Assembly: GCA_030390025.1 (NCBI GenBank)
Contig: CM059431.1
Coordinates: 153,018,001 to 153,082,000, forward strand
Source: Squalus acanthias
Taxonomy: Eukaryota
Direction: 5' to 3'
Length of the DNA: 64,000 nucleotides
In this document: positions 17,193 through 43,304 of the stretch, in pieces
How positions within the stretch are numbered: the stretch's first letter is position 1
How the letters are laid out: each line of letters starts with the position of its first letter
Notes under the pieces: model-generated
Databases searched by the model: none
Seen by the model: the letters and a program-made list of their open reading frames with translations, nothing else
What the model was told of the DNA's origin: nothing
Position numbers and translations under genes: made by a program

Positions 17193-18100
17193 TTAATTCT
17201 TCATTTTATGAACCAATATCAGAATCAATGTCCAAGGAGATTTCACCATCTTCACCAACTCTTGCCTGAATTTGGTTTGTGTCGCTGCATAAATGCAGGT
17301 TTTTGTACAGGAACTCAAATATAAGAGCATAAATCCGCTTTCAGCCAGGATGTATGCAGGGGTTTCGTACTCACCTTTGTAGTAAACGGCCAGGCTGTTC
17401 TTCAAGTTACTCACGACAGATGTCAACCACAACAGAATAAAACTGCCCGATACAGTGAACAGTAAAATGATGGATTTCCTCCGGCTCTCCATCTCTGGAT
17501 CGCTCTGATTCTCACTGCAGTGACCCCGGAGTCCCCTGCGGGCCCCACTGCTTACTACAATTCGTCTGACTGTAAAACAATTAAACAGTAATATCAAAGC
17601 AACAGCAAACCATGGAACTAAAATTATCTGAATGCGCAAATAGGCTATGCCTGCAGGCGATGAATAAAAGGTTACATTGGCGCGGCATCCCCAGGAAACA
17701 TTGTTAATGATTCGTTGAGATTCATAGGAGAAAGCAAAGGGGATATTCTCTATACAGGCCAGCACAAGGACAGTTGTTAAAACAGCTGCCGCAGTTCTCA
17801 ATGTGCAATACTTCGTTTTAATCTTCTGACAACATATTGTTACAAATCGGTCAAAAGTGAACAAGGCTGGAAACCACACGGACATATCCAGGGTGACGGT
17901 ATTGATGTAATTAATGGATTTACACACGGCAGTGTAGGCCAGGACTGATTGCGGAAAGTGGTAACAGAAAATCTGAAACACCAGTATATGGAAGATGATG
18001 ACCAGTAGATCTGCTGTCGCCATGGCCACCATGTAGACCGAGATACATTTGGAAAGGCCGCAATTTCCTCTGGAGAGAATCAGGATTGTCAGTAGGTTCG
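17193..18100 (-). CDS. GPR139-like: GPR139-like class A GPCR, copy L, exon 2 (end of TM1 through C-terminus)
   Basis: Acceptor ttcattacag|cg at 18101/18100; ANLLTILILSRGNCGLSK, MVAMATADLL (TM2), FTFDRF (DRY-like), DPEMESRRKS, TCIY (TM7); open to the stop at 17193. Confidence 0.9.
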
Positions 18101-18189
18101 CTGTAATGAAGATGGAGAAGAGTTTAGTACAAGGGATATCCTGTTAAACCTCACAGCTTATTGTGGGGGAACGCTCAGATGTGTCCCTA

Positions 18190-18690
18190 CATTCTGGTAA
18201 ATCTCCTCTGCACCCTCTCTAAGGCCTTCACATCCTTCCTAAAGTGTGGTGACCAGAACTGGACGCAATACTCCAGTTGTTGTCCAACCAGTGCTTTATA
18301 AAGGTTCAGCAGCACTTCTCTGCTTTTGTACTCAATACCGCTATTTATGAAGCCCAAGATCCCATATGCTTTTTTAACCACTCTCTCAATATGTCCCGCC
18401 ACCATCAGGGTCCTTTGCACATTAACTCCCAGGTCCCTCTGTCTCTGCACACTCTTTAAAATTGTGCCATTGAGTGTATATTGCCTCTCCCTTTTCCTTC
18501 TGCCAAAATGCATCTCCTCACACTTCTTTGTATTAAATTCCATCTGCCACTTGTCTGCCCATTCTGCGAGCCTTTCTATGTTCTGTTGCAGCTACTGTTT
18601 GCCACACCCCCAAGTTTGGTGTCATCGGCAAATTTAGCAATTCTACCCTGTATTCCAATATCCAGGTCATTTATATATATCTTAAAAAAT
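18190..18690 (-). mobile_element. Internal CR1 RT fragment in the intron of copy L only
   Basis: MEFNTKKCEEMHFGRR...QRDLGVNV...LEYCVQFWSPHFRKDV; no CR1 3' tail; absent from the copy R intron. Confidence 0.88.
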
Positions 18691-18878
18691 TGATTTAAAA
18701 GGAATGAAACATTGAATATTCAATATAGAGGGACTCAAATTCCGACTCCCTTCCACCATACTTCAGGCAGTGGTTAAATATAATTTCGCAGCAATTACTG
18801 GAAATATCTGGATTCAATAAAACATTCAGCTGTTAGGTGGAGGTAGCTGCAGTCCGAGCAATTATCAACTTAAAATAG

Positions 18879-20409
18879 TGGTCATGATGTGGAGATGCCG
18901 GCGTTGGACTGGGGTGTACAAAAATGAGAAGTCGCACAACACCAGGTTATAGTCCAACAGATTTATTTAAAATTACAAGCTTTCGGAGCTGTCGCCCCTC
19001 CCTCAGGCAGAGTTACTGTGAGACAATCTACCAGAATTCACAGAATATAAACACAGAGAAAATGCATTCAATCTTTCACTACAGCAAAGACACACTAAGA
19101 GCACAGCCAAGACAATGAGATGTGTCCCAGTGGGTCCAACGTGTCAAAACACCTGCTGGCTGCATATCCTCTCCATTTGGGTTTGTTTCTTGTGTTTGTT
19201 TTTTGTGTTTGTTTTTTTTTAAAGCTGGAAAGACCGGGAACGATGTCAAGTCACGTTCTGTATCGTGACATGAACCCGATATCCCGATTGAGGCCGTCCT
19301 CATGAGTGCGGAACTTGGTTATTAGTTTCTGCTGGATGATTTTGCGTTGTCGTGTATCCCGAAGGCCGCCTTGGAGAATGCTAACCCGCATATCCGAGGC
19401 TGAATGCCCTTGACTGCTGAAGTGTTCCCCGACTGGGAGGCAACCCTCCTGCCTGGCGATTGTTGCACGGTGTCTGTTCATACGTTGTCTCAGTGTCTGC
19501 ATGGTCTCGCCGATGTACCATGCTCTGGGGCATCCTTTACTGCGACGTATCAGGTATACAACGTTCGGCGAGTCACATGAGTATGTACCATGTACCTGGT
19601 GGGTAGTGTCCTCACGTGGGATGACGGTATCTGTGTCCATGATCTGGCATGTCTTGCAGAGGTTGCCGTGGCAGGGTAGTGTGGTGTCGTGGTCGCTGTT
19701 TTCCTGAAAGCTGGGTAATTTGCTGCGAACGATGGTACTTTTGAGGTTAGGCGGCTGCTTGCAGGCGAGTAGTGGAGGCGTGGGGATGGCCTTAGCAGTA
19801 AAGGATGCCCCAGAGCATGGTACATCGGCGAGACCATGCAGACACTGAGACAACGTATGAACGGACACCGCGCAACAATCGCCAGGCAGGAGTTTTGCCT
19901 CCAAGTCGGGGAACACTTCAGCAGTCAAGGGCATTCAGCCTCGGATCCTCGGGTTAGGGTTCTCCAAGGCGGCCTTCGGGATACACGACAACGCAAAATC
20001 ATCGAGCAGAAACTGATAGCCAAGTTCCGCACTCATGAGAACGGCCTCAATCGGGATATCGGGTTCATGTCATGATACAGAACGTGACTTGACATCGTTG
20101 CCGGTCTTTCCAGCTTTTAAAAAAACAAACACAAGAAACAAACACAAGAAACAAACCCAAATGGAGAGGATATGCAGCCAGCAGGTGTTTTGACACGTTG
20201 GACCCCCTGGGACACATCTCATTGTCTTGGCTGTGCTCTTAGTGAGTCTTTGATGTAGGGAAAGATTGAATGCATTTTCTCTGTGTTTATATTCTGTGAA
20301 TTCTGGTAGATTGTCTCACAGTAACTCTGCCTGAGGAAGGGGCGACAGATCCGAAAGCTTGTAATTTTAAATAAATCTGTTGGACTATAACCTGGTGTTG
20401 TGCGACTTC
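18879..20409. mobile_element. Penelope-like element: GIY-YIG endonuclease 3' part with inverted (fold-back) terminal repeats
   Basis: Minus strand 19251-19790 encodes KQPPNLK...CKTC...NVVYLI...WYIGETMQTLRQRM...VGEHF...GLNRD. Arms 18924-19543 and 19795-20411 are inverted; TSD tcaacttaaaatag at 18865-18878 and 20410-20423. Confidence 0.92.
20326..20365 (+). ncRNA. Minimal hammerhead-ribozyme-like motif in the Penelope repeat
   Basis: cCTGAGGAaggggcgacagatccGAAAgctt (CUGANGA...GAAA); the inverted copy at ~18976-19010 has the variant CTGAGGG. Confidence 0.6.
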
Positions 20410-20733
20410 TCAACTTAAAATAGACAGGGAAACACGGGACAAATGAAATAAATACTATGGACACTAAGAAACACATCCTTTACTGGACTATGTACTGTTG
20501 GAGGGGCCGGGTAATCAGCCTCGCCCTCCCTCAGTGTAGAGAGGAAATTTGAGTGCCCCGTGGCCAAGATCTGCCTGACAGAATAGAGCCTAACCGGCCG
20601 CGCAGACTGGTTGGATTCCCGCTGATATTCACCAAATTATCCCGGTAGATAAATGATCTTCACGGAATCTGTTACACAATCATTAACAGTGAGATCGTCA
20701 ACAACTATTAAACAACAGGATGCTTTGATTAAC

Positions 20734-20803
20734 CGAGAATACCAAAGACTGCGAGAAAATTATAGTATATGTCCTTTATCTGTAGAATTATTGGCCGTGC
20801 CAT
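20734..20803 (-). CDS. GPR139-like: GPR139-like GPCR, copy L, exon 1
   Basis: MARPIILQIKDIYYNFLAVFGIL + g|gttaat; the phase-1 donor joins exon 2 in frame to give 325 aa. Confidence 0.85.
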
Positions 20804-21199
20804 TTTTAGAAGGAAGTGCGAAAACTGTCCTGCTTTAATGTTCCGACTGGATTATATCCGAGATCAGTAAATGCTCCCCCTTTATAGAACAATCCATCCA
20901 CCGGTGAGCAAACCAGGTTACACAATAATTGAACTTAGTTACTGTCACTTAACAAACAAGGGGCTATTTTCCGCTACAGTGCGTCCGGTCCACCAATGGG
21001 GAAATTGAACAGCTCAGTCCATGAAACTCCATCCAGTTAAATCAAAGAAAGGGAGTTAATCCCCGATGAAATGTGCTCTGCGCCCGTCATGTGATCTCTG
21101 AAGGGAACATCTCTCCAAGTCCCTGCGTTAGCTTCTTAGAGCCTCACATAATTTGGTGAAATCTTCTCTCATCCATTACATGAGTAATGCTTTAACGTT

Positions 21200-22720
21200 A
21201 CTGTAGATATCTCTGCCCTGACATTACTGGTCGTCACCCTTCTCTAATATTACTACTGGTAATCCAAAAGTAATATTACTGGTGGTGGCCATCATCTAAC
21301 ATTAATGGTGATGGGCCTAAGCTAATATTACTAGTGGTGAACCTACACTAACATTACTGGTCATGACTCAACATAAGATTACTGATGGAGACCCTGAACT
21401 AACATTACTGGTGATGATCCTCCTCTAACATTGATGGTAGTGACCCAACTTTAACATTACTGGTGGTGACTCTACTCTTGTCTTGCAGCTGGTGACAGCA
21501 CTCGTAACATTACTGGTGGTGAGCACACTTTACCATTACTGGTGTTAAATCTACTCCAACATTGCTGGTATTGAGCCTACACTAACATTACTGGTGGTGA
21601 CCCTAAATTAACAGTACTGGGATGATTCCAATCTAACATTACTAGTAGTGACTCTACTCTAACACTGAGGGTGGCGACTCTACTGTAACATTGCTGGTAT
21701 TGACCCTACTCTAATATGTGTGGTGTTGACCCTATTCTAACGTTAATTGTGGTGACTGTACAATAACATTGCTGGTGTTGACACTAGTCCAACATTACTG
21801 ACTCTGAAAATACTCTAACTTTATTGGTTGTGACCGCACTCTAACATTAATGTTTGTTAGTCTAAAGTTACTGGAGTTAACGTTACTGGAGCAGAAGCAT
21901 CCGGGAAGGCGCCGAGTACCTCTAGTCACTTCGCCGGGAGCAAGCGGAAGTAACGCAAGGAGCGCACGTCAACCCAAGCACCCCACCCACCCGCCCGTTC
22001 AAGCACCGTCTGCCCCACCTGTGAAAGAAACTGTAGGTCCCGCATTCGACTCATCAGTCACCTCAGACTCATTTTTAGTGTGGAAGCAAGTCATCCTCGG
22101 TTCCGAGGGAGCACCTAAGAAGAAGAAGAGACTGGAGTTTAATCTGCTCTAACATTACTGGTAGTGAACCTATTCTAACATTACCGCTGCGGAATCTAAT
22201 CTAACGTTACTGGTGGTGACTGCACTCTAACATTACTAGTGGTGACCCTACACTAATATTACTGATGGTGATCCGACTCTAACATTGATGTTGGTGACTC
22301 TACTTTATTAATGCTGGTGCTGAATCTACACTAATATTACTAGTGATGATCCAAGTATAACAGTACTGGTGTAGACCCTATTCTAACATTACTGGTGCTG
22401 AATCTACATTAATATAACTGGTGATGACACTTGTCTAACATTACTGGTGAAGTCCCTACTCTAACCTTACTGCTGTTGACCCTACTCAAACGTTGCTGAT
22501 GCTGACTCTACTCTAACAATACTGGTGATGACCCTACTCTAACATTACTGGTGGTGACTCTACTCTAACCATATTGCTGATGACCCTATTCTGACATTAC
22601 TGGTGGTGACTCGAATCTAACATTACTGGTGGTGACTCTAATCTAACAGTACTGATGATGACCTTACTCTAACATTACTGGAGGCGACTGTACTGGAACA
22701 TAACTGGTAGTGACCCTCGT
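21200..22720 (-). repeat. 26-bp minisatellite in reverse orientation (actctactctaacattactggtggtg)n, degenerate
   Basis: Reverse complement of the array at 23490-31520. Confidence 0.92.
21893..22131 (+). mobile_element. RTE LINE 3' end
   Basis: ctcatcagtcacctcagactcatttttagtgtggaagcaagtcatcctcggttccgaggga...(aag)n is the same terminus as 26618-26700 (-). Confidence 0.8.
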
Positions 22721-22729
22721 CTAACCGCA

Positions 22730-23480
22730 GTGCTTCTTCTAAGGAGGCGGACTGATTCATCAGCTTAGGGAAGGCGGTTGTTAATCAGTCGGAGCTTCTC
22801 TTGCCCATGTTTGACCTGTTGCCCCGAGACATCATGGAGTTCGAAATAAATGTTGAGGACTCTCAGGGCCACTCCGACCCGACTGTAAAATGGAGTACCG
22901 CCTCATCTGGTGGGTCTGTCCTGCTGGTGGGACAGGATAGATCCAGGGATGGAGATGGAAGAGACTGGGACATTGGCTGAAAGATATGATTCTGTCAGTA
23001 TGACTGTGTCAGGCTGCTGTTGGACTAGGCTGTGGAGCAGCTCAGCTAATTTTAGCACAAGTCCCCAGATGTTAATGATGAGGAATTTGCAGGGTCGAAT
23101 GGGTGGTCTGTGCCTTTGTCGTGTCAGAACCCGATCCGTCCAATTTTATTCTTATTATACTCATTTAGAGCGCGTTGATACAAATGAGTGGCTTCTTCGG
23201 CCATTTCAGAAGATAATTAAGAGTCAGATATAGACCTTACAGGCAAAGGATGGCAGGTTTCTTCCCTACTATCCATTAGTGAACAACTTGCCTTTCTACA
23301 ATAATCGATAGCTTTATGTACATCATGCATCAATACTTTCATTTTATTAGAGATTTATTTAACTGACTGCATTGAAATTCCCAGATTGCCATGGGAAGGC
23401 TCGGGTTTGGAACTCACAGCTTCGTATTATTGGTCCCGCCCTCTGGATTACCAGTCAAGCAACATAACCATTATGCTGCC
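22730..23480 (-). mobile_element. 5' part (UTR/EN) of a second CR1-group LINE family, degenerate
   Basis: 22760-22860 resembles 61660-61760; 23040-23090 is the reverse complement of 24655-24710. Confidence 0.7.
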
Positions 23481-24259
23481 GGACCTACGAGAGGTCACCA
23501 GCAGAAATGTCAGAGACTTGTCCTCGCCATTATTGTGAGTGTGGAGTCATCATCAATAATCATACAGTAGGGTCATCAACAGTACTGTTCGAGTAGGTTC
23601 AATACCGTTAATGTTAGAGTAGAGTCACCACATGTCATGTTAGTTGGGGCTCACAATCAGTAAATTTAGAGTTGCATCTCCACCGCTGATGGTAAAATAG
23701 GTCACCACCATTGATGTTAGAATACAATCAACACCGCTAATGTTAGGGTAGTGTAAGCAAGAGCAGTGTTCGATTAGAGTCAGCAACAATAATGCTAGAG
23801 TAGGAATAAAGGCCAGTCATGTTAGAGTAAGTTCACCACCGGTGATGTCAGAGTAGGGTCACCACCTGTATTGTTAGAGTAGAGTTATCAACAGTAATTT
23901 TATAGCAGGATCACCTCTGATATTATTAGGTCCGACTATTGAACAGAACTTGTTATCGTGCAGTTCCAAACATTAATGTTGCAGTAGGGTGACTACCAGT
24001 AACGTTAGATTAGGCTACAACCCCAGTAGTGTTAGAACTGAGTCATGATCAATAATGTTAGAGTCTGGTCATCACCAGTAACGTTGGAGCAGAGTCACCA
24101 TCAGTAAGGTCAGAGGCGAATCACCACCAGTGATAATAGAGTAGGGTCAACACCAGTAGGGTTAGAGTAGGATCAACACCAGCAATAAAGGTAGAGTAGG
24201 GTCAACACTAGAAATGTTAAAGTAGGGAATAGGCCAGTAATGTTATAGTAGGATAACTT

Positions 24260-25290
24260 TTAACACTGTGGTAATTTTACTGGGCTAGTAATCCAGAGGC
24301 CAGGACTAATGATCCAGTGGTGGGGATTTGAAATTCATTTAATTAAATACATCTGGGAAAAAAAGCTATTATCAGTAACAGTAACCATCGGATTGTCGTA
24401 AAAACCCATCTGGTTCACGAATGTCCTTTCGGGAAGGAAATCTTCCATCCTTACCTGGTCCGGTCAATATGTGAGTCCACACCCACAGTAATGTGGTTGA
24501 CTCTATACTGCCCTCTGAAATGGCCCAGCAAGCCACTCAGTTATAACAAACCACTGCGAAACACAATAAGAAGAATAAAACCGGAAGAACCACCCGGCAT
24601 CGACCTCGGCACCAGCTACGGACACGACAACGGCACACCCAGCCCGGTCGAATCTGCAAAGTCCTCCTCACCAACATCTGGGGACTTGTGCCAAAATTGG
24701 GAGAGCTGTCCCACAGACTAATCAAGCAACAGACTGACATTATCATACTCAAACAGTCATATTCCATGATGAACAACACTTGGAAGAAGCACTGAGAGTA
24801 TCAAGGGAACAGAATGTACTCTGGGTGCAGGACTTCAACGTCCATCAGCAAGAGTGGCGCGATTCCGTCACTACTGACCAAGCTGGTCGAGTCCTTAAGG
24901 ATATAGCTGCGAGTCTGGGTACTGCGACAGGTGGTGACAGAACTAACACGAGGGAAAAAACTACTTGACCACGTACTCACTAATGTAACTGTTGCAGATG
25001 CATCTGTCCATGATAGATTTTGTAGCAGTGACAACCACACAATTATTGCGGAGACGAAGTCCCGCTTTCATACTGAGGACACCCTCCATCTTTTTGTGTG
25101 ACACTACCATCGTGCTAAATGGGACAGATTCAGAACAAATCTCGCAGCTCAAAACTGGGCATCCATGAGGCGCTGTGGGCCATCAGCAGTAGCAGAATTG
25201 TATTCCACCAGAATCTATAAACTCATGGCCCGGCATATCCCTCACTCTACCATTACCATCAAGTCAGGGGACCAACCCTGGTTCAATAAG
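24260..25290 (+). mobile_element. 5' part of the second CR1-group LINE family (EN remnant)
   Basis: LEEALRVSREQNVLWVQDFNVH, and homology to 61130-61640 (-). Confidence 0.8.
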
Positions 25291-25578
25291 TAATGTTAGA
25301 GTAGAGTCACCACCAGTAATGTTACAGTAGAGTCACCAGCAGTAATGTTAGATTAGTGTCTCCAACAGTAATGTTAGAGGAGGGTCACTACCAGTAATGT
25401 TAGAGTAGAGTCAGCACCAGTAATGTTAGGGTAGAGACACCACCAGTAATGTTAGAGTATAGTCACCACCAGTAATGTTATAGTAGAGTCACCACCAGTA
25501 ATGTCAGAGTAGAGTCACCAGCAGTAATGATAGAGTAGAGTCAACAGCACTAATGTTAGAGCAGTGTCACCACCAGTA

Positions 25579-25950
25579 ATGATGCGGAGATGCCGGTGTT
25601 GGACTGGGGTGGACAAAAGTGAGAAGTCGCACAAAACCAGGTTTTAGTCCAAAAGTTTTATTTGATATCTCAAGCTTTCGGAGCTGCTGCACCTTCGTCA
25701 GGTGAAGTAAAGGAATACGAATCGACAAAGCATATATAGACAGAGAACAATGCATGTGTAGCGTACAATGTCAGGCGACTACATTTAGTCCTCCTGACTG
25801 CCTTTCGTCACACCTCGGCAGAGAAACAATCAGGTCAGACAGGAAGGCAACACCTCAAAGACATAGCAAGATACCACTGAGACAATGAGGTCACAGGGGG
25901 TCTAATGTGTCAAATGCTGCAGTCTGTATGGAAAACCGTAAACTTTAAAA
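25579..25950 (-). mobile_element. Penelope-like terminal fragment with a hammerhead motif
   Basis: Same head (gatgcggagatgccggtgttggactggggtggac...gagaagtcgcacaa) as at 18883 and 32310; the minus strand reads cacCTGACGAaggtgcagcagctccGAAAgctt (~25671-25704). Confidence 0.85.
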
Positions 25951-26617
25951 TTCACCATCAGTAATGTTCGAGTAGAGTCACCACCAGTAATGTTCGAGTA
26001 GATTCACCACCAGTGATGTTAGAGTAGAGTCACCACCAGTAATGTTAGAGTAGGGTCACCACCAGTAATGTTAGAGTAGGGTCACCACTTGTAATGTTAA
26101 AGTAGAGTCACCACCAGTAATGTTAGAGAAGGGTCACCACCAGTAATGTTAGAGTAGGGTCCCCACCCGTAATGTTCGAGTAGAGTCACCACCACTAATG
26201 TTCGAGTAGAGTCACCACCAGTACTGTTAGAGTAGAGTCACCACCAGTAATGTTAGAGTAGGGTCACCACCAGTAATGTTAGAGTAGGGTCACCACCGGT
26301 AATGTTCGATTAGAGTCACCACCAGTAATGTTCGAGTAGTGTCACCACCAGTAGTGTTCGAGTAGATTCACCAACAGTAATGTTAGAGTGGAGTCACCAA
26401 CAATAATGTTAGAGTAGAGTCACCACCAGTAATGTTAGAGTAGGGTCACCACCAGTAATGTTAGAGTAGATTCACCACCAGTAATGATAGAGTAGAGTCA
26501 ACACCAGCAATGTTAGAGTATGGTCACCACCAATAATGAAAGAGTATTGTCAACACCAGCAATGTTAGCGTAGTGTCACAAACAGCAATTTAGAATAGAG
26601 TCACCACCAATATTGGT

Positions 26618-29600
26618 CTCTTCTTCTCTTCTGAGGCAGTCCCTCGGAACCGAGGATGACTTGCTTCCACACTAAAAATGAGTTCTCAGGTGACTGATGA
26701 GTCCAATGCGGGACCTACAGTCTCTGTCACAGCTCGGGCAGACGTTGGGTGAAGGGGCGTGTGGGTGGGGTGCATGGGTTGACGTGCGCTCCTTCCGCTG
26801 TTTGCGCTTGGCTTCCGCTTGCTCCCGGCGAAGAGACTCGAGGTGTTTGGCGCCTTCCCGGAGGATTCTCCTCCACTTTGTGCGGGCTCGGGCCAGGGAT
26901 TCCCAGGTATCGGTGGGGATGTAGCACATTTTCAAGTAGCCTTTGAGGGTGTCCTTGAAGCGTTTCCTCTGCCCACCTGGGGCTCTCTTATGCCGTGCCG
27001 GAACTCCGAGTAGAGTGCTTGTTTTGGGAGTCTCGTATCGGGCATGCAGACGATGTGACCAAATCATCGGAGCTGATCGAGCGTGGTCAAAGCTTCGATG
27101 CTGGGGATGTTGGCCTGAGCGGGAACACTGACGTTGGTGCGCCTATCCTGCCAATGGATTTGCAGGATCTTGCGGAGGCAGCGTTAATAAGAACATAAGA
27201 ACATAAGAAATAAGAGCAGGAGTAGGCCAATCGGCCCCTCGAGCCTGCTCCGCCATTCAATAAGATCATGGCTGATCTGATCCTAAACGCCAATCTACTA
27301 TCTACTATCACAGAACCATCTCCTGCATCTAACAGAATTGCACACACGAAATAGGAGCAGAATCAGGCTACACAGCCCCTGGGCCCGCTCCACTACCCAC
27401 AGGGCCATGACCGATCCGAACCTAGACTCAAGTCCAAATTCCTGCCCGCTCCCCGTAACCCTTAATGCCCTTTACTTCTAGGAAACTGTCTATTTCTGTT
27501 TTAAATTTATTTAATGATGTAGCTTCTATAGCTTTTTGTGGCAGCATATTCCATGGACCTACCACCCTCTGAGTGAAGTAGTTCCTCCTCATCTCAGTTT
27601 TGAAAGAGCAGCCCCTTATTCTAAGACTATGTCCCTTAGTTCTAGTCTCACCAGTCATCGGGAACATTCTCCCCGCATCCACCCGATCCAACCCCTTCAC
27701 AATCTTATATGTTTCCATAAGATCGCCTCTCATTCTTCTGAACTCCAATGAGTAGAGTCCCAATCTACCCAACCTCTCCTCATATGACCACCCCCTAATC
27801 CCCGGGATTAACCGAGTGAACCTTTTTTGCACTGCCTCGAGAGCAAGGATGTCTTTCCTTAAGTAAGGACACCAAAACTGTATGCAGTATTCCAGGTGCG
27901 GTCTCACCAATACCTTGTACAACTGAAGCAATACCTCCCTATTTTTATATTCTATCCCCCTAGCAATGAAAGCCAACATTCCATTTGCCTTCTTAATCAC
28001 TTGCTGCACCTGCATACTTACCTTTTGAGTTTCGTGCACCAGGAACCCCAGATCCCTTTGCACTTCAGTACTCTCCAGTTTCTTGCCATTAAGATAATAA
28101 ATTGCTCTAGGATTTTTCCTGCCAAAGTGCATCACCTCACACTTTCCAGTGTTGTATTCCATCTGCCAAATGTCTGCCCACTTACTTAGCCTGTCTATGT
28201 CCCCTTGCAGTTTTTTATGTCCTCCTCACTCACTACTTTCCCTCCCATCTTAGTATCATCTGCAAATTTTGATTTGTTACACTTGGTCCCTTCCTCCAAA
28301 TCGTTAATATAGATTGTAAAGAGTTGGGGACCCAGCACTGACCCCTGTGGAACACCACTAGTTACTGATTGCCAGTCTGAGAATGAACCATTTATCCCAA
28401 CTCTTTGCTTTCTGTTAGATAGCCAATCCTCCATCCATGCCAGAATATTACCCCCAATCCCGTGATTTTTTACCTTAAGCAATAATCTTTTGTGTGGCAC
28501 CTTGTCAAATGCCTTTTGGAAGTCTAAATACACTACATCCACTGGTTCCCCTTTATCCACTCTATATGTTACTTCCTCAAAGAACTCCAGCAAATTTGTC
28601 AAACATGACTTCCCCTTCGTAAAACCATGCTGACTTTGTCCTATTAAATTATGATTATCCAAATGTCCTGTTACTGTTTCCTTAATAATGGACTCCAAAA
28701 TTTTACCTACCACAGATGTTAGGCTAACCGGTCTATAGTTGCCAGCCTTCTGTCTACTGCCCTTTTTAAATAAGGGTGTTACATTAGCAGTTTTCCAGTC
28801 TGCCTGGACCTTAGCGGAATCCAGGGAGTTTTGAAAAATTATTACCAATGCATTTACAATCCCTACCGCCACTTCCTTCAAGACTCTAGGATGTAAGCCA
28901 TCAGGTCCAGATGATTTATCCGCCTTGAGTCCCATTATTTTACCGAGTACTACTTCCTTAGTGATTTTGATCGAGTTTAGCTCCTCTCCCCCTATAGCCC
29001 CCTGTTTGTCCAGTGTTGGGATATTCTTAGTGTCCTCTACTGAAAAGACTGATACAAAATATTCATTCAGTGTTTTTGTCATCTCCATATTTCCCACCAT
29101 TAATTTCCCGGTCTCATCCTCTAAGGGACCAACATTTACTTTAGCCACCCTTTTTCTTTTTATATAACTATAAAAACTCTTACTATCTGTTTTTATATTT
29201 TTTGCTAATTAACTTTCATAATCTATCTTCCCTTTCTGAATCAATCTTTTTGCTATTTTTTGCTGCTTTTTAAAGATTTCCCAATCCTCTGTCCTCCCAC
29301 TAGATTTCGCTACCTTATATGCCCTTGTTTTTAGTCGAATACTATCCTTAATTTCTTTACATAGCCACGGATGACTGTGCTTTCTTTTACACCCTTTTCT
29401 TTTCAGTGGAACATATTTTTTTTGGAAGTTGTAAAATAACTCCTTGAATGTACACCACTGATCATGTGGTACCTCTCCAGTGCTTTGAATTGCCCGCTGT
29501 ACATGGTCCATGACTCTGAAGCATTCAGGAGGGCGGGTAGCACTACTGCTCTGTAGACCATGAGCTTGGTGCTGGGTTTGAGGCCCTGGTCTTCACACAC

Positions 29601-29960
29601 GCTCTTCCTCAGGCGACCGAAGGCTGCACTGGCACACTGAAGGCGGTGTTGGGCTTTGACATCGACGGCTACCCTTGTTGACAGTAGGCTCCCGAGGTAT
29701 GGAAAGTGGTGCACTTTGTCCAAGGCCGCGTCATGGATTTTGATAATCAGGGAGAAGTCCTGTGTGGTGGGGGCAAGTTGGTAGAGGACCTTTGTCTTAC
29801 AGCTGTTTAGTGTAAGGCCCATGCTCTCGTACGCTTCGCTGAAGGTGTTGACGGTTTGGAATTCGACCTCAGAGTGTGCACAGACGCAAGCGTCGTCTGC
29901 ATACTGTAATTCGATGAGAGAGGATGTGACGACCTTTGATCTGCACTGGAGGCGACGGAG
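26618..29960 (-). mobile_element. RTE-clade LINE, 5'-truncated, split by a CR1 (pieces 26618-27187 and 29466-29960)
   Basis: KPSTKLMVYRAVVLPALL.ASESWT...ALERYH continues on the other side of the CR1; RFKDTLK...CPSCDRDCRSRIGLISHLRTH; ~30-bp flanking duplication aatttaga.tagag.caccacca.tattggt at ~26588 and ~29962. Confidence 0.88.
27188..29465 (-). mobile_element. Relatively young CR1 LINE with a near-intact RT domain (frameshifted)
   Basis: ORFs 28195-29148 and 27428-28162: YLDFQKAFDKVPH, GVPQGSVLGP, KFADDTK; (ttcttatg)n tail at 27188-27215. Confidence 0.95.
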
Positions 29961-31906
29961 TAATTTAGAGTAGAGGCACCACCAGTATTGGTAATGTAGG
30001 GTTACAATCTCTAATGTTAGAGTAGAGTCATAAACAGAAATGTTAGATTAGAGTCACCACCAGTTTTGTTAGAATAGGGTCACCACCAGTAATCTTTGAT
30101 GAGGTCCACCACCAGTAATGTTAGAGTAGGTCACCACGATTAGAGTATGGTCATCACAGGTAATTGTCGAGTAGGCTCACAGCTATTAAAATTAGTGTAG
30201 GGTCAACACCAACAATGTTAGAGTAGATTCACCAGCAGTAATTTTAGAGTAGAGTCAACACCAGTAATGTTAGAGTAGGGTCACCACCAGTAATGTTAGA
30301 GTAGGGTCAACACCAGTAAGGTTAAGGTAGGGTCTGCACAGGTAATGTTAATGCAGTGTCACCACCAGTAATGTCAGAGAAGGATCATCACCAGTAATGT
30401 TATCATAAGATCACCACCAGTAATGTTAGAGTGTTAGAGTAATGCAACAACAAATAATGTTAGACTAGGATCACCACACGTTACGTTAGATTAGTATTAC
30501 CCCTAGTAATGTTGAAGTAGGAAAACCACCAGTAATGTTAGAGAAGAGGCACCACAATTTATGATAGAGCAGATTCAATGCCAGTAATTTTAGAGTAGGG
30601 TCACCACCAGTAGTGTTAGAATCGGGTCATCACCAGTCATGTTAGTGTAGAATCACCACCAGTAATGTATTAGCAGGATTATCATCAATAATACTGGAGT
30701 AGGAACACCACCAGTAATGTTAGAGTAGAGGCACCACCAGTAATGTTAGAGTAGAGTCACCACCAGTAATGTTAGAGTAGGATCACCACCAGTAATGTTA
30801 GAGTAGGGTCACCACCAGTAATGTTGGAGTATAGTCATCCACAGTAATGTTAAGTGAAGGGGCAGCACGTCTTAGGTTAGAGTAGGGGCACTACCAGTAA
30901 TGAAAGTGTTGGGGCACCACCAGTAATGCTAGAGTAATGTCACCACCAGCAATGTTAGACTAGGATCACCACCAGTAATGTTAGTGCAGAGTCACCACCA
31001 GTAATGTTAGAGCAGAGTCACCACCAGTAATGTTAGACTAGGGTTACAACCAGTAATGTTAGAGTAGACTCACCACCAGTAATGTTAGAGTAGGGTCACC
31101 ACCAGTAATGTTAGAGTAGTGTCACCACCAGTAATGTTAGATTAGGGTCACCACCAGTAATGTTAGAGTAGGGTCACCACCAGTAATGTTAGACTAGGGT
31201 CACCACCAGTAATGTTAGAGTAGGGTTACAACCAGTAAGGTTAGAGCAGAGTCACCACCAGCAATGTTCGAGTAGGGTCACCACCAGTAATGTTAGAGTA
31301 GAGTCACCACCAGTAATGTTAGAGTAGAGTCACCACCAGTAATGTTAGAGTAGAATCACCACCAGTAATGTTAGAGTAGAGTCACCACCAGTAATGTTAG
31401 AGTAAAGTCACCACCAGTAATGTTAGAGTAGAGTCACCACCAGTAATGGTAGAGTAGAGACACTACCATTAATGTTAGAGCAGAGACATCAACAGTAATG
31501 TTACAATAGGTTCTACAACAGTGAAGTTCAAGCGTTTATTATGTAATGATGAGAGAATGTTTCACCAAATTATGTGAGGCCCAAGAAGCTAACACAGGGA
31601 TTTGGAGAGATGTTCCCTTTAGGGTTCACTCGGCGGGCGCAGAGCGCATTCCCACTGGGATTAACTCCCTTTCATTGATTTTAATGGACGGTGTTTCATG
31701 GACTGAACTTTTCAATTGTGGCCCGGGCGCACTGAAGCGGATAATCGCACTTTGTTTGTTAAGTGACTGTAACTAAGATCCATTATTGTGTAATCTGATT
31801 TTCTCACCAGGGCACGGACTGTTCTCTAAAGGGGGAGCATTTACGGATCTCAGATACACGCAGTCGGAACCGTAAAGCAGGACAGAAGTCACACAGCCTT
31901 CTGAAA

Positions 31907-31976
31907 ATGGCACGGCCAATAATTCTACAGATAAAGGACATATACTATCATTTTCTCGTTGTCTTTGGTGTTCTCG
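31907..31976 (+). CDS. GPR139-like: GPR139-like GPCR, copy R, exon 1
   Basis: MARPIILQIKDIYYHFLVVFGVL + g|gtaagt consensus donor, phase 1. Confidence 0.88.
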
Positions 31977-32308
31977 GTAAGTCAATGCATCCTGTTGGTT
32001 AATAGTTGATGACGATCTCACTGTTAATGATTATGTAACTGATTCCGTGATGGGTCTCATTGCAGAGTGACTTATCCACCGGGATAATTTGGTGAATATC
32101 AGCGGGAATCCTACCTGTTCGCCCTGCCGGTTAGGCGCTATTCTGTCCGGTAGATCTTGGGCACGGGGCACTCAAATTCCCTCTCTACACTGAGGCGAGG
32201 GTGATTCCCCGGCCCCTCCAACAGTACATAGTCCAGTACAGAATGTGTTGCTTAGTGTCCCTAGTAATCACTTCATTTGTACCGTGGTTCCCTGTCTATT
32301 TTAAGTTG

Positions 32309-32538
32309 CCATGATGTGGAGATGCCGGTGTTGGACTGGGGTGGACAAATGTGAGAAGTCGCACAACACCAGGTTATAGTCCAACAGTTTTATCTGAAAG
32401 CACAAGCTTTCGGAGCGCTGCTCCTTCGTCGGGTGAAGTCAAGGCCCTTTACTTCACCTGACGAAGGAGCAGCGCTCCGAAAGCTTGTGATTTCAAATAA
32501 AACTGTTGGACTATAACCTGGTGTTGTGCGACTTCTCA
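32309..32538. mobile_element. Miniature fold-back Penelope-like insertion (two inverted hammerhead-containing ends)
   Basis: 32352-32439 and 32451-32538 are near-perfect inverted repeats around aaggccctt; TSD tattttaagttg at 32297-32308 and 32539-32550. Confidence 0.88.
32452..32495 (+). ncRNA. Minimal type-I hammerhead ribozyme motif
   Basis: CTGACGA (32458-32464), stem II ggagc-agc-gctcc, GAAA (32479-32482), palindromic aagctt; this is the architecture known from Penelope pLTR hammerheads. Confidence 0.72.
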
Positions 32539-32867
32539 TATTTTAAGTTGATAATTGCTCGGACTGCAGCTAGCTCCACCCAACAGCTGAATATTTTATT
32601 GAATCCATATATTTCCAGTAATTGCTGCGAAATTATATTTAGCCACTGTCTGAAGTATGGTGGAAGGGGCTCGGATTTTGAGTCACTCCATACTGAATCT
32701 TCAATGTTTCTTTCCTTTTAAATCAAATCTCCTCAGCACTCGCCTATATGGCAACAAATCGGTGTACGTGACGCCAAGTAGGGACACATCTGAGCATTTT
32801 CCCACAACATGCTGTGAGATTTATCTGAGTATCCCCGTTACTGACCTCTTCTGCCTCTTCCTTACAG

Positions 32868-33775
32868 CGAACCTACTGACAATCCTGATTCTCTCCAGAG
32901 GAAATTGCGGCCTTTCCAAATGTGTCTCGGTCTACATGGTGGCCATGGCGACAGCAGATCTACTGGTCATCATCTTCCATATACTGGTGTTTCAGTTTTT
33001 CTGTAACCACTTTCCGCATTCATTCCTGTCCTACACTGCCGTGTGTAAGTCCATTCATTACATCAATACCGTCACCCTGGATATGTCGGTGTGGTTTACA
33101 GTATTTTTCACTTTTGACCGATTTGTAACTATATGTTGTCAGAAGATTAAAACAAAATATTGCACAGTGAGAACTGCGGCAGCTGTTTTAACAACAGTCC
33201 TTGTGCTGGCCTGTATAGAGAATATCCCCTTTGCTTTCTCTTATGAATCTCAACGAATCATTAACAATGTTTCCTGGGGATGCCGCGCCAATGCAGCCTT
33301 TTATTCATCGCCTGCAGCCATAGCCTATTTCCGCATTCAAAGTATTTTAGTTCCATGGTTTGCTGTTGCTTTGATATTACTGTTTAATTGTTTGACAGTC
33401 AGACGAATTGTAGTAAGCAGTAGGGCTCGCAGGCAACTCCGGGGTCACTGCAATGAGAATCAGAGCGATCCAGAGATGGAGAGCCGGAGGAAATCCATCA
33501 TTTTACTGTTCACTGTATCGGGCAGTTTTATACTGTTGTGGTTCACATCTGCCATTAGCTTCATCACTGACAGCCTGGCCGTTTATTACAAAGGTGAGTT
33601 TGAAAACCCTGCTTACATCCTGTCTGAAAGCGGATATATGCTCATGTATTTGAGTTCCTGTACAAACACATGCATTTATGCAGCGACCCAAACCAAATTC
33701 AGGCAAGAGTTGGTGAAGATGGTGAAATCTCCTTGGACATTGATTCTGATATTGATTAATAAAATGAAGATTTAA
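32868..33775 (+). CDS. GPR139-like: GPR139-like class A GPCR, copy R, exon 2
   Basis: Acceptor ctcttccttacag|cg; ANLLTILILSRGNCGLSK...FTFDRF...SSCTNTCIY; 908 nt, the same length as copy L exon 2; 325 aa in total. Confidence 0.92.
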
Positions 33776-34829
33776 AGCATAGCTTCCTGTCCTAACTAGA
33801 GCTCAATTACAGCCCGTGTTCCGTTTTAGAATGGCATTGTTTCCCTTGGGACAAAAGCGGATTGTTCTTGTGAAAATGAGCAGGTTTCAGGAAATATAGT
33901 TCCCAATTTGTGCCGGGTGTTTGATGTCTGCTTCTTTCCCCGTGTGAACATAATCGATTCCCGCTAAAACAGCGCCCTTCCCGCTCAAGATTCAAAGAGA
34001 GCCGTCATGATTGAGCTTCAACAGTGGAGTAGAACATGTGTGCGTCAGCGTTAACTACCTCACACAGCAGCTACTGGAAGGAGACGCTCAGTTTAATTAA
34101 CAGATAGACATTCCTTTAGTTTGGACATATTTAAGGGTTTTGAAATCCTGCTTATTTGTAAAATTGTAATCTTGGTTTGAATGTTGCAGGCGCTGGACTC
34201 CCCATCAGACTCCGCCCCCCATTGTCTCCTGGACCAATAGAACGGGGCCCTGTCTCCTGATCAGTATCTAATGATGGAGACAGTAGGAACTTGTCTCGTC
34301 AATGTGACATTAGACATCTTTGTTCACAGATATTTACTGAAAATCTCAACTGGTCAACAAAATGGTGGAATGTTATGAGAGGGGAAACAACTGTTTAACC
34401 CAATCAGACCTTCTCAGCGTTTACCCTTCAGCCGATCAAATTGTTCCAATCACTTTATCCGCCCGGTCTCAACATCACTTCAACCTATTTTTCTTCATCC
34501 ATCTGTACAATTAGTCTCCAATATTGGCATAATTTCTGCCTCTGTTAATTTCACAGCTTCACCACTCTCCATTTAAAGAGAAGTCTCCGAACATCCGTTC
34601 TGAATCTCGTCAGTCCATTTTTTAATCTATAATCGTTAGTTCCAGATCCCTCAAATAATGGCAGCAGTCTGCTTCTTTCTATTCTATCCCGTTCCGTCTT
34701 AACGTAAATCACCTGGGCACAACTCGCCAAAAATCTCATCCTGGCATCAATTCGCAATCTAGTGCAAGTCAGGTAAGTGTAGTTAAGATAGTTAATTGGT
34801 TGCTTTCTCTTGGAGATGACAGCGGTTTA

Positions 34830-37800
34830 CTTAGGAGATACAGCACAGAAACAGACCATTCGGCCCAACCAGTCCATGTCGGCGTTTAAGCTCCACTCGA
34901 GCCTCCTTTCATCTTTCCTCATCTAACTCTATCAGCACAAACCTATATTCCCTTCTCCCTCCTATTCTTATCTAGCCTCCCTTTAAATGTGTCTATACTG
35001 TTTGCTAGAACCACTCCCTGTGATAGCGAGGTTCACATCCTCACATTCTATTGGTAAGAACTTTCTTATGAATTCCGTATTTGATTTCATGCTGACTATT
35101 ATCTTATATTGACGGCCTTAAGTTTTGCTCTTCCCCACCAGTGGAAACATTCTCTCTGAGTCTACTCTATATCAAAACCTTTCTATAGTTTAAAGCCCTC
35201 TATTAGGTCACCTCTCAGCCTTCTCTTTTCAATAGAAAAGAGACTCCAGTCTGTTCATACTTCCTGATAGGTATATCCTCGCAATTCTTCTATCATCCTT
35301 GTAAATCTTTTTTGCACCCTCTCCAGTGCCTGTAAATCTCTTTAATAATATGGAGTCCAGCATTGTACACTGTTCTCCAAGTGTGGCATTACTAAGGTTA
35401 GATACAGGTTTAGCATAATTCTCTACTTTTCAATGATATCCTTCTTGAAATAAACCCTAGTGCTTGGTTTGCTTTTTTATGCGTCGCTAGCTTTTGTAAA
35501 CCAGTGTTGCTAGTTTCAGTGATTAGTGTATGTGTAATCCAAGATCGCTATGCTCTTCTATCCCATTTAGATTCTTATTTCCCAAGTAATATGTGACCTC
35601 CTTAATTTACTGACCAAAATGTAATACCTCCCATTTTTCTCTGTTGAAATTCATTTGCCAATTATATGCCCATTCTGCAAGTTTATTAATGTCTTCTTGT
35701 AATTTGTTGCAGTCCTCCTTAGTCCTGACTATCATAGCCCCCCACCCCCAGCAATTTGGTGACATCCGACAATTTCGAAATTGAGCTTTTGAATCCAAAG
35801 TCTAAATTGTTAACATAAATTATGAACAAACATGGTCCCATGCACTGAACATTGCGTGAATCCACTTTCCACATTCTGCCGCTCCGTATAGCTAATCTTT
35901 ACCCGTATTCTCTGATTTCTGTCTTGAAACCAGCTCGCTATCCATTCTGCTACTTGTCACCTGACTCTGCATTCTCTGACATTTTTCATTAGTCTGTCAT
36001 GTAGTTCTTTATCGAATACTTTTTTGAAATCTTGATAAATTACGTCAACTACTCAAAGCTTGTCTACGCTCTATGTTACCTCTTCAAAGAATTCAAATAG
36101 TGTGCTCAAACAAGACATTTTCTTTTGAAACGCATGCTGACTATTCATGATTAGATTTTTGCTCTTCGAGATGTTCTTCTATTTTTTCCTTTAGTAGGAA
36201 TTCCATTAATTTTCCTTCCACCGATGTTAAGCTGAATTAACTATAGTCCCACGGACATGTTCCATATCCCTAATTAAATATAGGTATTACGTTAGCAATC
36301 CACCAGTCCTTTTGCACTATACCTTTTTCGAACGAATTATTAAATATGTGTAATAGTGCCTCTTCTATCGCTTCCCTAGATTCCTTTAAAATGCGTGGAT
36401 GTAATTCGGCTGGAGCAGCGCATTTATCCTGTTTGAGTTTGATTAGTTGATCTAATATTTCTCCTTTTAAATTTTAAATGCGGTTATATCACTTCTAATC
36501 TCATCTTCCGATGTCACGTCTATCTGACCGTCTCCCTGGTAAAAACAGAAATAAAGTAAGTACATAATATTTCTGGCATTTCGCTATCGCTGCCTGTGAT
36601 TTAATACTGGCCGTTCCTTAACGGCCCTATTCCCATCTCGAATTTCCTTTTTTATTTATGTGCCTGCAGAATATTTTATTACATTGCTTTATGTTCCTTG
36701 CAAATTTAATCGCATAGTTCCCCTTTGCATTCCTACTTTGTTTGACTTCTCTCCTATCTCTTTGTATTCTTCCTTGCCATTATTTCACCTATTGTCCATT
36801 TTCTTAGTGTTCGCCTCTTTTTTTATCCTCATTTTTTTTTCTTTTGCCTTTATTCATCCATGGCGTCTCATTAGTGTTTAGCTTGTTCTTGATTTTTAGT
36901 GCAATATATTTTCCTGCACTCTGCTGAATACCGTTTTAAATGTTTCCCATTGTTGTTCTACATCATTGCTTGCCAATATCGCTGTACATTTTATTTTCCA
37001 AGTTCTATCCTCAGCCCCTCACATACGCATTTTCTCCAATCTGTTACCCTGATCGTCATCATACTTATGTCCTTCTCAATTATTAGCTGAAAGATTATTA
37101 TATTATGGTCACTGTTACCTAGATGCTGCCCCACTTTTTCTTCTCTTATCTGCTCTGGTTCATTCCCCATTACTCGATCCAGTCGCTAATCCTCCCTTTT
37201 CGGCTTCTTGCATATTGGGTTAGAAAGGAATCATTTGAACATAGTCGGAACTCCATTCCCCTATCCCCTTTACCTACCTCTTCTGCACAATTAATTTCGG
37301 GGCAGTTTAAATTTCCCATTAATATTATTTTTTTTACTAATTTCTCAAACTTTTTTTCCATATTTCTTCCTTCATCTCTTCTTCCAACATTAGTGGTCTA
37401 TAGACTACCTCTATTAGTGTGATTGAACCTTCATTATCTTTTATCTCTATCCACGTGGATTCTATTTCTGTCTAACTGATAACTCTGTCATGTTTTTACT
37501 GCCATTATGTTATCTCTAATAAGCAGAGCTAACCCACTTCCTATTTTGCCCACTTTTTCTTTTCTAAATATGTTATGCCCTGCAATGTTTAATTCCCAGT
37601 CCTGCTTTCTCTAGCCATGGCAAAGTATTCCCTACAATATCTGGTTCATCGCAACATAATATTGCCTCCAGTTCCCCTGTTTTGTTACGGACAGAGTGTG
37701 TATTGCTCTACAGAGAGTTAACTCATGTTTAATAGCAGTTCTTGTCACTTTATTTTCAACCATCTTTTTACTCCCTATTTCTATAACTCTATTTATTACC

Positions 37801-39300
37801 TAGAGTCTATGACCTCCCTTAGTTTGTTCCTTCCTATGTTCTGCGTTCCTGTTTCGTTTATATTTAGTCTGGTTTCATTTCTTATAGATCCCTTGTTACG
37901 AATGCTTCGTGCATTCAGATAAACAGCCTTTACTTTTAGCTTTCTTACCATTATCCCCTGCTTTCTCCTTGTTCGCTGATGCACTATTACCATTAAGCTC
38001 TCTGTTCTTTCCTGTCACACTCTGCTTATCTTTATCCAAATCGATACACTGCTCCAATGCCTTGAATTTTAGCTGAAAGGCCTATGAACAGTCAAGTTAT
38101 TAGATTCAACAGGATACATGTCCCAGCCCGGTTTAATGGAGCCCCTTCAATATGGAGCAGCTCACTCTTTCTCCAGTACTGGTGCCAGTGCCCATGAATC
38201 GAAACCTCTTCCTCCCAAACCATTCTTCCAGCAAAACATTTAACTCTCAGTTCTGCTTATCACGGTGGCAATTTGCACGTGGATGATGTCACAATCCAGA
38301 AATTATTACTTTTGAGGTCCTGCGATTTAAATTGTATGCTCGCTCCTCAAACTCAGCAGAACCTCATTCCCAGTTCGACGTATGTCTGTGGTTCCGACGT
38401 GGAATACGACCACTGGATCCTCCCCCTCCCACTACAAATGTTTCTCTAGCTGCGGGGAGATATCCTTAAACCTGACAGGCAACAGAGCCTTCGGAACACC
38501 GGTCCTGGCTGCAGAAAACAGTATTTCTCCCCCTGACTATGCTGTCCTCTACCACAACTACATTCATTTTCACTCGTCCCACTGGAATGGCCTCCTATGC
38601 CAAGGTGCCGTGGTCAGTTTGCTCATCCATACTGCAGACTTTGCCCTCATCCACACAGGCAGCAAGAACCTCATACCTGCTGAATACGTACTAAGCCGAG
38701 GCTCCTCCATCACTGCACCTGGGGTCACCTTACCTGCCTGAGTCGCAGTCACACCCTCCTGTTCCTGACCACTAACCAGGCCTGTTCCACTACCTAACCG
38801 AAGGGGTGTGACTGCCCCCTGGATCAAAGTGTCAAGGTAACTCTCCCCCGCCCTGATGCCTCGCAATGTCTGCACCTCGGTCTCCTGTTCAACAACTCTG
38901 AGAAGAAGTTCCTCGAGGTGCAGGCACTAAGTGCAAACGTGGTCATCAGGAATCGCGATTCTCGACACAAACATATCACCCGCACTGCCATCACTATATA
39001 ACCTCGTTTTAGTTATTTAATTAATTAATGTTTATGCATTCAATTAACTTAGCTCATAATTTAGTTTTTAAATACTTACTAAATCTAGTTCAAGTTATAG
39101 GTTGAACCCACTTCGCTGGCTGAGAGTAAAATAAACTGTAAAACTCACCAACCAATCACCTACCTGCTGTCCGGTGACGTCACTCCATGATAATTCGTTG
39201 TTGTTTTTGAATTTCCCGAATAAATATGCCGCTGCTGCTCAGGTCTGCCCCGCCCCAGGATCTTTCCTCCCGCTGCTTTTATGCCGCCGCTCCTCATCTT
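34830..39300 (-). mobile_element. Old, near-full-length degenerate CR1 LINE (paralog of 11960-15390, retains more ORF1/5' sequence)
   Basis: YLNARSIRNKG, ILMGNLNCPEIN, LAEWAYNWQMNFN; ESYLDTLIQGAVTPLR is an ORF1-like remnant. Confidence 0.88.
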
Positions 39301-39907
39301 GTTCAGATCCGCTTTCATGGTTATGTCCTTTCTGGTACTGAGCAATTAGAGGAATGTACTTGATAGCTTTGCCACTACAAGAAACATCGGAACCATGCAG
39401 AGGGAGATTCTATCCAAACATCGACAGAACCCCTACCCCCTCTCCCAGCTTTTTGTAGATAGCCAGAAATGGCAGGGATGGCTTGTATCGGATGCCTCCA
39501 GCTGCCTGATCTTGGGTTATCGCTGTGTGTGCTGAAGTGAAGTGTTGCCCGTGAATGCGAGACCAGCATGCGATGTGCATGATGAAGATTCCATGAAGAA
39601 TGGGTCCAAGACATGGCCAGTCACGCTTGAGTCAGCACTACAAGAAGTTCTCAATGTGGCTCTGGAGAGAGTAATGTGTAAAGCAAATGGGTAGATATCT
39701 GCAGAAGAGAATAGATCGAGATAGATATATGATGCTGATGAGATTTTTTTAGGTTTAGCCTTCAGTAATCTAATGCCAAAGGTGGGGTATTGTTAGGAAA
39801 TAGTTAATCAGACTGCCTAAAGTGTGCTAATGTTATACTGTATTGCTTTATCGTTCTATAGCTTTAATTTTAATATGTAGCCTCGGCCTGTTAAGCAGGG
39901 AAGGAGC

Positions 39908-40410
39908 AAAGGCATGGATGAGGGTTTCAGCAGCAGATGAGCTGAGGCAGGGCCGGAGACGGGCAATGTTATGGAGGTGGAAATAGGCGGTCTTATGCCG
40001 CTGATATGTGGTTGCAAGCTCATGCAGGGTCAAATATGACACGAAGGTTGCGAACAGTCTGTTTCAGCCTCAGACAGATGCTAGGGAGAGGGATGGAGTC
40101 GGTGACTATGGAACGGAGTTTGTGGAGGGGACTGAAGACAATGGCTTCGGTCTTCCCAATATTTAAGTGGAGACAATTTCTACTCATCCAGTACTGGATG
40201 TCGGACAAACAGTCTGACAATTTAGAGACGGTGGAGGGGACGAGAGAAAAGGTCGTGAGTTAGAGCTGGGTGTCGTCACCGTACATGTGGAAACTGACGC
40301 CGTGGTTTCGGATGGTGTCGCCAAGGGGCAGCAGAGAGTTGAGAAATAGGAGGGGAGCAAGAATACATCCTTCGGGGACCTCAGAGGAAATGATGCGGGA
40401 GTGGGAAGAG
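39908..40410 (-). mobile_element. L2 fragment (paralog of 9070-9575)
   Basis: LSDIQYWMSRNCLHLNIGKTEAIVFSP and AETLIHAF. Confidence 0.88.
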
Positions 40411-42210: not shown

Positions 42211-42227
42211 TCACCAGAGGACGGGGA

Positions 42228-43165: not shown

Positions 43166-43304
43166 CTGGGGCAATCTGGGGATTGTTAAGGGAACGGGGG
43201 AGATAGGGAGAAAGAGCAAAAGAAAAATCACAGCAGATGGGGGAAAGTAATCGGAAAGGGAGGTTTAAAAAATCCAGAGAGGTAACAGAAAAAACAGGTT
43301 AGAG

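Follow-up and report, generated by a model that had tools for sequence, protein, structure and literature searches.

A Penelope-like element with a loose palindromic target has filled one receptor intron site three times

We analysed a 64,000-nucleotide stretch of Squalus acanthias DNA, hereafter the window (G000:C7:153018001-153082000, within a 3.7-Gb genome), that carries two rhodopsin-family receptor genes of two exons each, L and R, in inverted arrangement. Each gene holds an insert of one Penelope-like element (PLE) family at the same position of its intron, and a third insert occupies this position in another paralogue. Our reading, to which we give a probability of roughly 0.8, is that the site was hit three independent times by a PLE that has a loose palindromic target and makes a 12-base duplication, likely through a dimer that cuts both strands and primes at both ends. 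A symmetric target preference shared across the family mainly explains the re-use of the site, with part of the excess of hits left over.

Inserts at one intron site

The inserts and their target-site duplications (TSDs) lie in the window as follows.

18866-18877, plus strand: first TSD copy of L, 12 bp, its register set by motif score
18878-18924, plus strand: tail (unique end) of L, including 6 extra bases; putative first cDNA, primed from the top-strand cut
18925-19795, minus strand: 5'-truncated body of L in sense, with the end of the open reading frame (ORF), the 3' untranslated region and the terminal repeat; from translation and a by-eye, motif-for-motif match to the 814-aa reverse transcriptase (RT) and endonuclease frame of locus L285
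18973-19012, minus strand: hammerhead-like motif of L by motif reading, with core boxes, stem II and a palindromic short stem III; the core is altered in this arm
19796-20410, plus strand: inverted, more truncated copy in L without a tail; putative second cDNA, primed from the bottom-strand cut
20411-20422, plus strand: second TSD copy of L, 12 bp, by sequence comparison
32297-32308, plus strand: first TSD copy of R, 12 bp, reverse complement of the L 12-mer
32309-32351, plus strand: tail (unique end) of R, by sequence comparison
32352-32538, no strand assigned: hairpin of two terminal-repeat arms in R (32352-32445 and 32447-32538), identical at 88 of 92 positions; the whole R insert is 230 bp
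32539-32550, plus strand: second TSD copy of R, 12 bp

The inserts in L and R share one site. A preliminary description of the window had placed a duplication copy on each side of both inserts, and all four are present there. The R duplications are the reverse complement of the 12-mer within the L copies, and this 12-mer occurs at no other place in the window. The outer flanks match, as had been described: once the inserts are taken out they align without a gap across the site, at 92% identity over 178 bp on the exon-2 side and 87% over 710 bp on the exon-1 side. Both tails lie on the plus strand (18883 and 32310) and the genes are inverted, so that the tail of L points to exon 2 and that of R to exon 1; this claim, too, stands. 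The 14-bp repeat proposed at L exists, but the true TSD is 12 bp and the rest consists of bases shared with the element ends. An 11-bp register scored far below the 12-bp register against the target motif and was rejected.

The inserts differ in form. In L, the ORF end (19251 onward) would encode a C-x4-C-x2-C linker and a GIY-YIG domain, the two arms are identical at 594 of 618 positions, and bases 18878-18883 match the continuation of the element itself as found in tandem copies. R carries a hammerhead-like motif at about 32452-32492. The third insert, X037 (C7:153643261), consists of a short tail joined to an inverted copy. L and R had been taken for two different elements: the inserts do differ, but they represent subfamilies of a single family, identical at 101 of 112 positions over tail and terminal repeat.

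Three independent insertions

A search with both flanks found 18 close paralogues in C7:150.5-153.7 Mb. Junction patterns identified five occupied copies (L, X037 and three copies of the R insert) along with four matches at unrelated loci, while the empty-site pattern gave 81 matches, three of which, on C2 and C3, look unrelated. The three R-type copies (R, L047 and L048) are one insertion later copied by duplication.

A tree of 21 paralogue flanks, from which p153591 was excluded as its flanks turn non-homologous, separates the remaining events. The occupied state needs three changes in 200 of 200 bootstrap trees, and each occupied lineage has an empty sister. Approximately unbiased (AU) tests reject a single clade of L with X037 (4.4e-13), of L with the R trio (p-AU 4.3e-6) and of all five copies (9.9e-5). 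The inserts themselves have their closest relatives elsewhere in the genome: two unlinked copies agree with R at every one of its first 90 nt, the 48-nt tail of L recurs unchanged at 20 other loci, and the arm of X037 is closer to an unlinked copy (103 of 105 positions) than to the L arms (100 of 105). X037 comes from a multicopy subfamily of its own, and therefore the site was filled three times. The proposal of independent insertions is borne out by the three gains on the flank tree, the rejected clade of L with the R trio and the unrelated closest copies of each insert: the site was hit three independent times, by three multicopy subfamilies.

A loose palindromic target

The preferred target of the family is a loose palindrome, with C-n3-G-n-C before and G-n-C-n3-G after a core of 12 AT-rich bases. 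We found a TSD for 107 of 163 sampled tails in 3-kb loci; 105 of these are unique, with 55 duplications of 12 bp and 25 of 13 bp. Redundant cluster members were dropped from each motif (16 of 105 in the matrix, 21 named loci in later scoring and count sets). Of the 54 non-redundant cases with a duplication of exactly 12 bp, 48 have a pyrimidine before the core and 51 a purine after it. Peaks mirror each other across the core: C at -7 (29 cases) and G at +19 (28), G at -3 (24) and C at +15 (29), C at -1 (39) and G at +13 (35). Most of the motif information lies in these G/C positions outside the core, and the duplicated cores are diverse in sequence. The idea that the stronger half-site decides which side receives the tail was rejected, the 54 cases showing no difference (Wilcoxon p 0.32).

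The motif predicts sites that were kept out of it. With a matrix built from 43 sites, 12 of 13 new 12-bp sites fell in the top 2% of background. The intron site, also outside the training set, scores 8.0-9.4 bits (top 0.02-0.06% of background). It ranks first among the 617 positions of the R intron and second within the 566 bp of L that were scored, and on the exon-1 side its half-site comes close to perfect, within the top 3% of real halves. The strong target preference suspected from the window is real, then, but its object is neither the CAACTTAAAATA 12-mer as such nor anything special to the receptor family. As a specific target the 12-mer fails: only four tail-less ends adjoin it genome-wide, two of them at unrelated loci.

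Re-use of target sites elsewhere

Filling one site repeatedly, and in both orientations, is a general trait of the family. Twenty-four of the 105 sampled sites fall into eight same-position clusters inside long and short interspersed elements (LINEs and SINEs), counted once two clusters that the script had merged were separated manually; one of the pairs is likely a duplicate. Three of the eight clusters contain both orientations, the largest splitting 3 to 5.

The hottest site measured, which is also the position of this largest cluster, lies in the RT region of a CR1-like LINE (for example L325-L364). There, 793 tail junctions in one orientation stand against 3,480 exact empty 28-mers, an occupancy of about 12% for that orientation once the empty count is corrected by the 22 of 37 exact flanks. 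Forty fetched loci with 41 junctions yielded 37 complete inserts of 35 different lengths (73-2,424 bp), all with the same 12-bp TSD. These lengths and the presence of several subfamilies rule out one amplified chimera. Such re-use makes shared inserts at hot sites unsafe as markers of common descent, as the same base can be refilled in either direction.

Four identical added bases recur in most junctions at the LINE site, and in template variant L122 the match to the target extends over 8 nt; pairing may add to the heat of this site. At locus L346 (G000:C1:93792500-93796300), two LINE-site tail junctions lie 3 kb apart in facing orientation, and no tail-less end was found; this may be a two-tailed insert or a rearrangement.

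Element family and class

The family is large. An exact 29-nt tail occurs 31,609 times genome-wide, giving at least that many copies, and the exact tail is present in 27 of 41 test-site junctions, which suggests some 48,000 insertions in all. Strictly site-specific retrotransposons of the R2 or Tx1 type have nearly all their copies at one target sequence. This family is spread over 89 non-redundant target sites among 105, and its hottest measured site accounts for 793 junctions in one orientation.

Judged from its sequence features, the element is an endonuclease-bearing PLE of the Neptune/Nematis type as characterised in PMC8557442; here and below, comparisons extend to the available portions of the cited works. 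Locus L285 (2318-4762) holds a stop-free frame of 814 aa, read as RT plus GIY-YIG, inside a 4.5-kb inverted-repeat insert, and is a candidate near-complete copy. Its frame matches Pfam RVT_1 (E 1e-8, 35.6 bits, cut-off 29.6). The Pfam search gave no GIY-YIG match for L285 or the L fragment, the GIY-YIG assignment being a motif reading, and no solved structure matched the ORF. Both L and L285 contain a C-x4-C-x2-C linker, an instance of the C-x2-5-C-x2-C motif that defines Neptune/Nematis (PMC8557442); Penelope and Poseidon are marked by the absence of this linker zinc finger. L285 also has the CCHH signature, with both cysteines between the GIY and YIG boxes and the histidines downstream; in the L arms the first of these cysteines is changed or cut off.

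The insert structure points the same way. L and R each show a 5'-truncated copy, an adjacent inverted copy and a single tail, and in a held-out set of 35 inverted pairs, 34 have exactly one tail and 33 a TSD. The terminal repeat reads as hammerhead-like in its core boxes, stem II and stem III, though an Rfam search for a hammerhead returned no family at E<=1. Most sampled targets lie in unique DNA, LINEs or SINEs, unlike the microsatellites towards which Neptune/Nematis insertions reportedly tend, a bias that is not a strict criterion. Neptune and Poseidon are listed as the PLE groups that occur in vertebrates (10.64898/2026.07.22.740005).

A proposed model of double priming

Considering how one palindromic site could yield inverted inserts with a single tail, we propose the following model. 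A protein dimer would nick both strands 12 nt apart, each just 5' of a purine in A|G-n-C-n3-G (the bar marking the cut), leaving 12-nt 3' overhangs. One 3'-OH would start reverse transcription within a window of about 10 nt at the tail, the other about 45 nt further inside, and the two cDNAs would join in the middle. With a symmetric cut, the side that receives the tail would be arbitrary, giving the same duplication in either orientation; the opposite orientation of L and R follows from the symmetric cut in this model.

Several features of the junctions underlie this model. The template start windows are both about 10 nt wide. The tail-less end falls at template offsets -3 to +8 in 104 of 105 inserts, directly against the duplication. 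At the tail end, primer and template match over 1-3 nt, with a mean of 1.65 nt over the 95 templated junctions of 103, against 0.63 in shuffled controls (none of 2,000 shuffles as high). Nine of 41 LINE-site inserts have a tail of only 9-16 nt joined to an inverted copy. The model also fits the anole Poseidon protein: in vitro it cleaves both strands and extends each of them, beginning at two template positions that bound the tail, and it is predicted to dimerise (PMC11167929).

The strong form of the model is that the GIY-YIG protein, acting as a dimer, recognises a target with two-fold symmetry and cleaves it at a constant 12-nt 3' stagger, after which both ends invariably prime reverse transcription, in two fixed template windows and with short primer-template pairing. 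We consider this form slightly better than an even bet. If true, this one rule would account for three general traits of PLE insertions, namely inverted repeat, one-sided tail and free orientation, and natural hot spots, filled in 10-20% of copies, would be ready substrates for in vitro work. A fixed TSD length, a symmetric target, predicted nicks and very hot natural sites together make double priming testable with one protein and one short substrate.

Weighing the alternatives

Several observations weigh against our reading, and we set them out here with the rival explanations they bear on. L and R diverge by 10% over their shared 112 nt, close to the 8-13% of their flanks, a figure that alone does not exclude one old insertion; and L and X037 share one base that is absent from 48 sampled arms. 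A single ancestral insertion, duplicated, then inverted, trimmed or moved by gene conversion and precisely lost elsewhere, would account for this likeness of shared-end identity (101/112) to flank identity, for that uncommon base and for the tail-less junction that L and X037 have in common. Tandem paralogues can convert each other, and the R trio itself shows copying by duplication. Yet the duplication stays in the register of the flanks while the element is reversed, the arms within L and within R differ by about 4%, less than L differs from R, the one-clade trees are rejected, and L, R and X037 each belong to a different multicopy subfamily. The shared base is the norm in the X037 subfamily and private in that of L: in a hand count of four-site haplotypes in the first 100 of 1,112 arm matches, 36 have that of X037, 50 that of L except for this base, 14 another and none exactly that of L. 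These counts and the tree likewise rule out X037 as a collapsed copy of L, an idea raised by the shared junction and base. Short tails like that of X037 are common in fresh inserts, 9 of 41 breaking off within about 16 nt at the LINE site. The preliminary description had made a single insertion depend on L and R being each other's closest relatives, with a divergence equal to that of the arms; their closest relatives are other copies, and divergence alone would not tell the two readings apart. The single-insertion explanation is largely refuted, and we regard it as highly improbable. The motif has weak points of its own: the tail sample over-represents the start of contig C1 and copies resembling L or R, the left half of the intron site scores about 0 bits, and the bootstrap range of the site's score is wide (6.1-9.5 bits). 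A family that merely prefers AT-rich DNA might, with at least 31,609 copies, have met itself at one site by chance; the duplicated cores are indeed diverse, and AT preference is reported for other elements (PMC11167929). This explanation founders on the flanking G/C positions, which hold most of the motif information, and is refuted by the held-out sites and by the LINE position, whose occupancy of about 12% is some 10,000 times the mean per-base rate.

Other points concern how often the intron site was hit. The motif predicts where in the intron an insertion falls, not how many occur: predicted occupancy is about 0.2% per copy, and the 25 empty paralogue sites that were scored add up to about 0.03, whereas three events occurred. 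The matrix under-predicts the LINE site as well (7% against about 12% in one orientation). Given this under-prediction and the wide bootstrap range, the excess at the intron site shrinks but persists. A local factor beyond the motif, such as open germline chromatin near the promoter, DNA shape or a break-prone spot, could supply the remainder. It would fit three events among 18 close paralogues where 0.03-0.1 are expected, and also the confinement of all five occupied copies to the close clade, junction patterns having found none among more distant paralogues. Against this, site scores are lower in those distant paralogues that were scored (2.7-6.9 bits), a motif drawn from some 100 sites is a rough guide, and the window was flagged through the first two hits, leaving only the third free of selection, with a chance of about 0.03-0.1, higher at the top of the bootstrap range. 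Exact tails number 7 in 287 kb against 2.4 expected, but five of the seven are at this site; a general enrichment of the family around the receptor genes, counted in the same way, is absent apart from it. A local boost is possible, though we think it less likely than not. As for the mechanism, the nick positions are predicted, and the dimer and double priming putative, for this protein. The same cut could be followed by a single priming event, with the inverted arm made by template switching or by self-priming, the latter proposed from palindromes at the inverted junctions of rotifer elements (PMC3846280). We find this rather unlikely, given that the tail-less end is confined to a narrow template window abutting the duplication, that inserts with 9-16 nt of tail and a long inverted copy are frequent, and that both strands are extended in vitro (PMC11167929).

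Relation to known elements

The architecture of the element is standard for its class (PMC8557442, PMC3846280). Like Neptune/Nematis-type PLEs, it combines a single ORF of RT and C-terminal GIY-YIG with the C-x2-5-C-x2-C linker and CCHH motif, and shares with them 5' truncation, an adjacent inverted copy, a 30-40-bp tail at one end and, by motif reading, a hammerhead-like sequence in the terminal repeat (PMC8557442). Its targeting is different: Neptune, Naiad and Chlamys are described with variable TSDs and a microsatellite bias, whereas here the TSD is a sharp 12 bp, the motif is palindromic and non-repetitive, and hot spots are single positions (PMC8557442). The same source calls the origin of PLE inverted repeats and one-sided tails unresolved.

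The green anole Poseidon protein PAc resembles our model in that both strands are cut and extended, two starts bound the tail, targets are AT-rich and a dimer is predicted (PMC11167929). Unlike our element, it belongs to a clade without the linker finger and has a reported preference for a short ATT motif. Its initiation is said to lack homology to the cut DNA, while the tail junctions here match over 1-3 nt, above chance; the text covered here reports no fixed stagger or palindromic site, and the supplementary figures may bear on target motifs (PMC11167929). Penelope families of Adineta vaga likewise have inverted terminal repeats, an optional 31-bp tail, short duplications and verified empty sites, but differ in their 8-10 bp example duplications, few copies and lack of a target consensus, and in that their inversion is ascribed to self-priming (PMC3846280). 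Across the accessible PLE literature (including PMC9977147 and 10.64898/2026.07.22.740005), with most subscription journals and Repbase reports outside its scope, the reported preferences are for AT-rich, ATT or microsatellite targets with variable duplications, and neither a palindromic consensus nor a fixed 12-bp stagger appears.

The double priming proposed here also has a counterpart outside PLEs. In L1 twin priming, two target 3' ends prime, leaving an inverted 5' part between target duplications. Twin priming is occasional in L1 and its two parts do not overlap; here an inverted partner is common, the two arms are usually copies of one terminal repeat, and the second start keeps a fixed place close to the tail.

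Other features of the window

The receptor genes and a further copy of the element are located as follows.

17193-18100, minus strand: exon 2 of gene L, a two-exon rhodopsin-family G protein-coupled receptor (GPCR), putatively GPR139-like; ORF 17193-18143, exon-2 region 91% identical to that of R
20734-20803, minus strand: coding exon 1 of gene L, by translation
25579-25713, plus strand: third copy of the element family in the window, in a tandem repeat upstream of gene R and off the intron site; common to paralogue unit L237
31907-31976, plus strand: coding exon 1 of gene R, by translation
32868-33775, plus strand: exon 2 of gene R, by ORF, 7tm_1 match and splice acceptor

The exon-2 reading frames are open in both genes, and the R exon-2 region matches Pfam 7tm_1 (E 1.8e-19). 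The splice donor of gene L is unlike that of gene R. Counted by its intron site, this GPCR family has undergone a very large expansion, with at least 83 copies in G000:C7:137-153.7 Mb and on unplaced contigs. The tandem repeat upstream of these genes has received further element copies in several paralogues (window 25579-25713; L237; L202 and L228; L234), in at least three separate events.

Both receptor genes and several tandem-repeat arrays are carried by a large inverted duplication, window 1-21780 against 30915-47700, whose blocks are 77-91% identical. The L intron contains a LINE fragment at 18190-18690 that R lacks. Beyond the duplication, a 294-aa open frame on the minus strand (53470-54354) matches Pfam ART (NAD:arginine ADP-ribosyltransferase, E 1.8e-44) and is probably a host ecto-enzyme gene.

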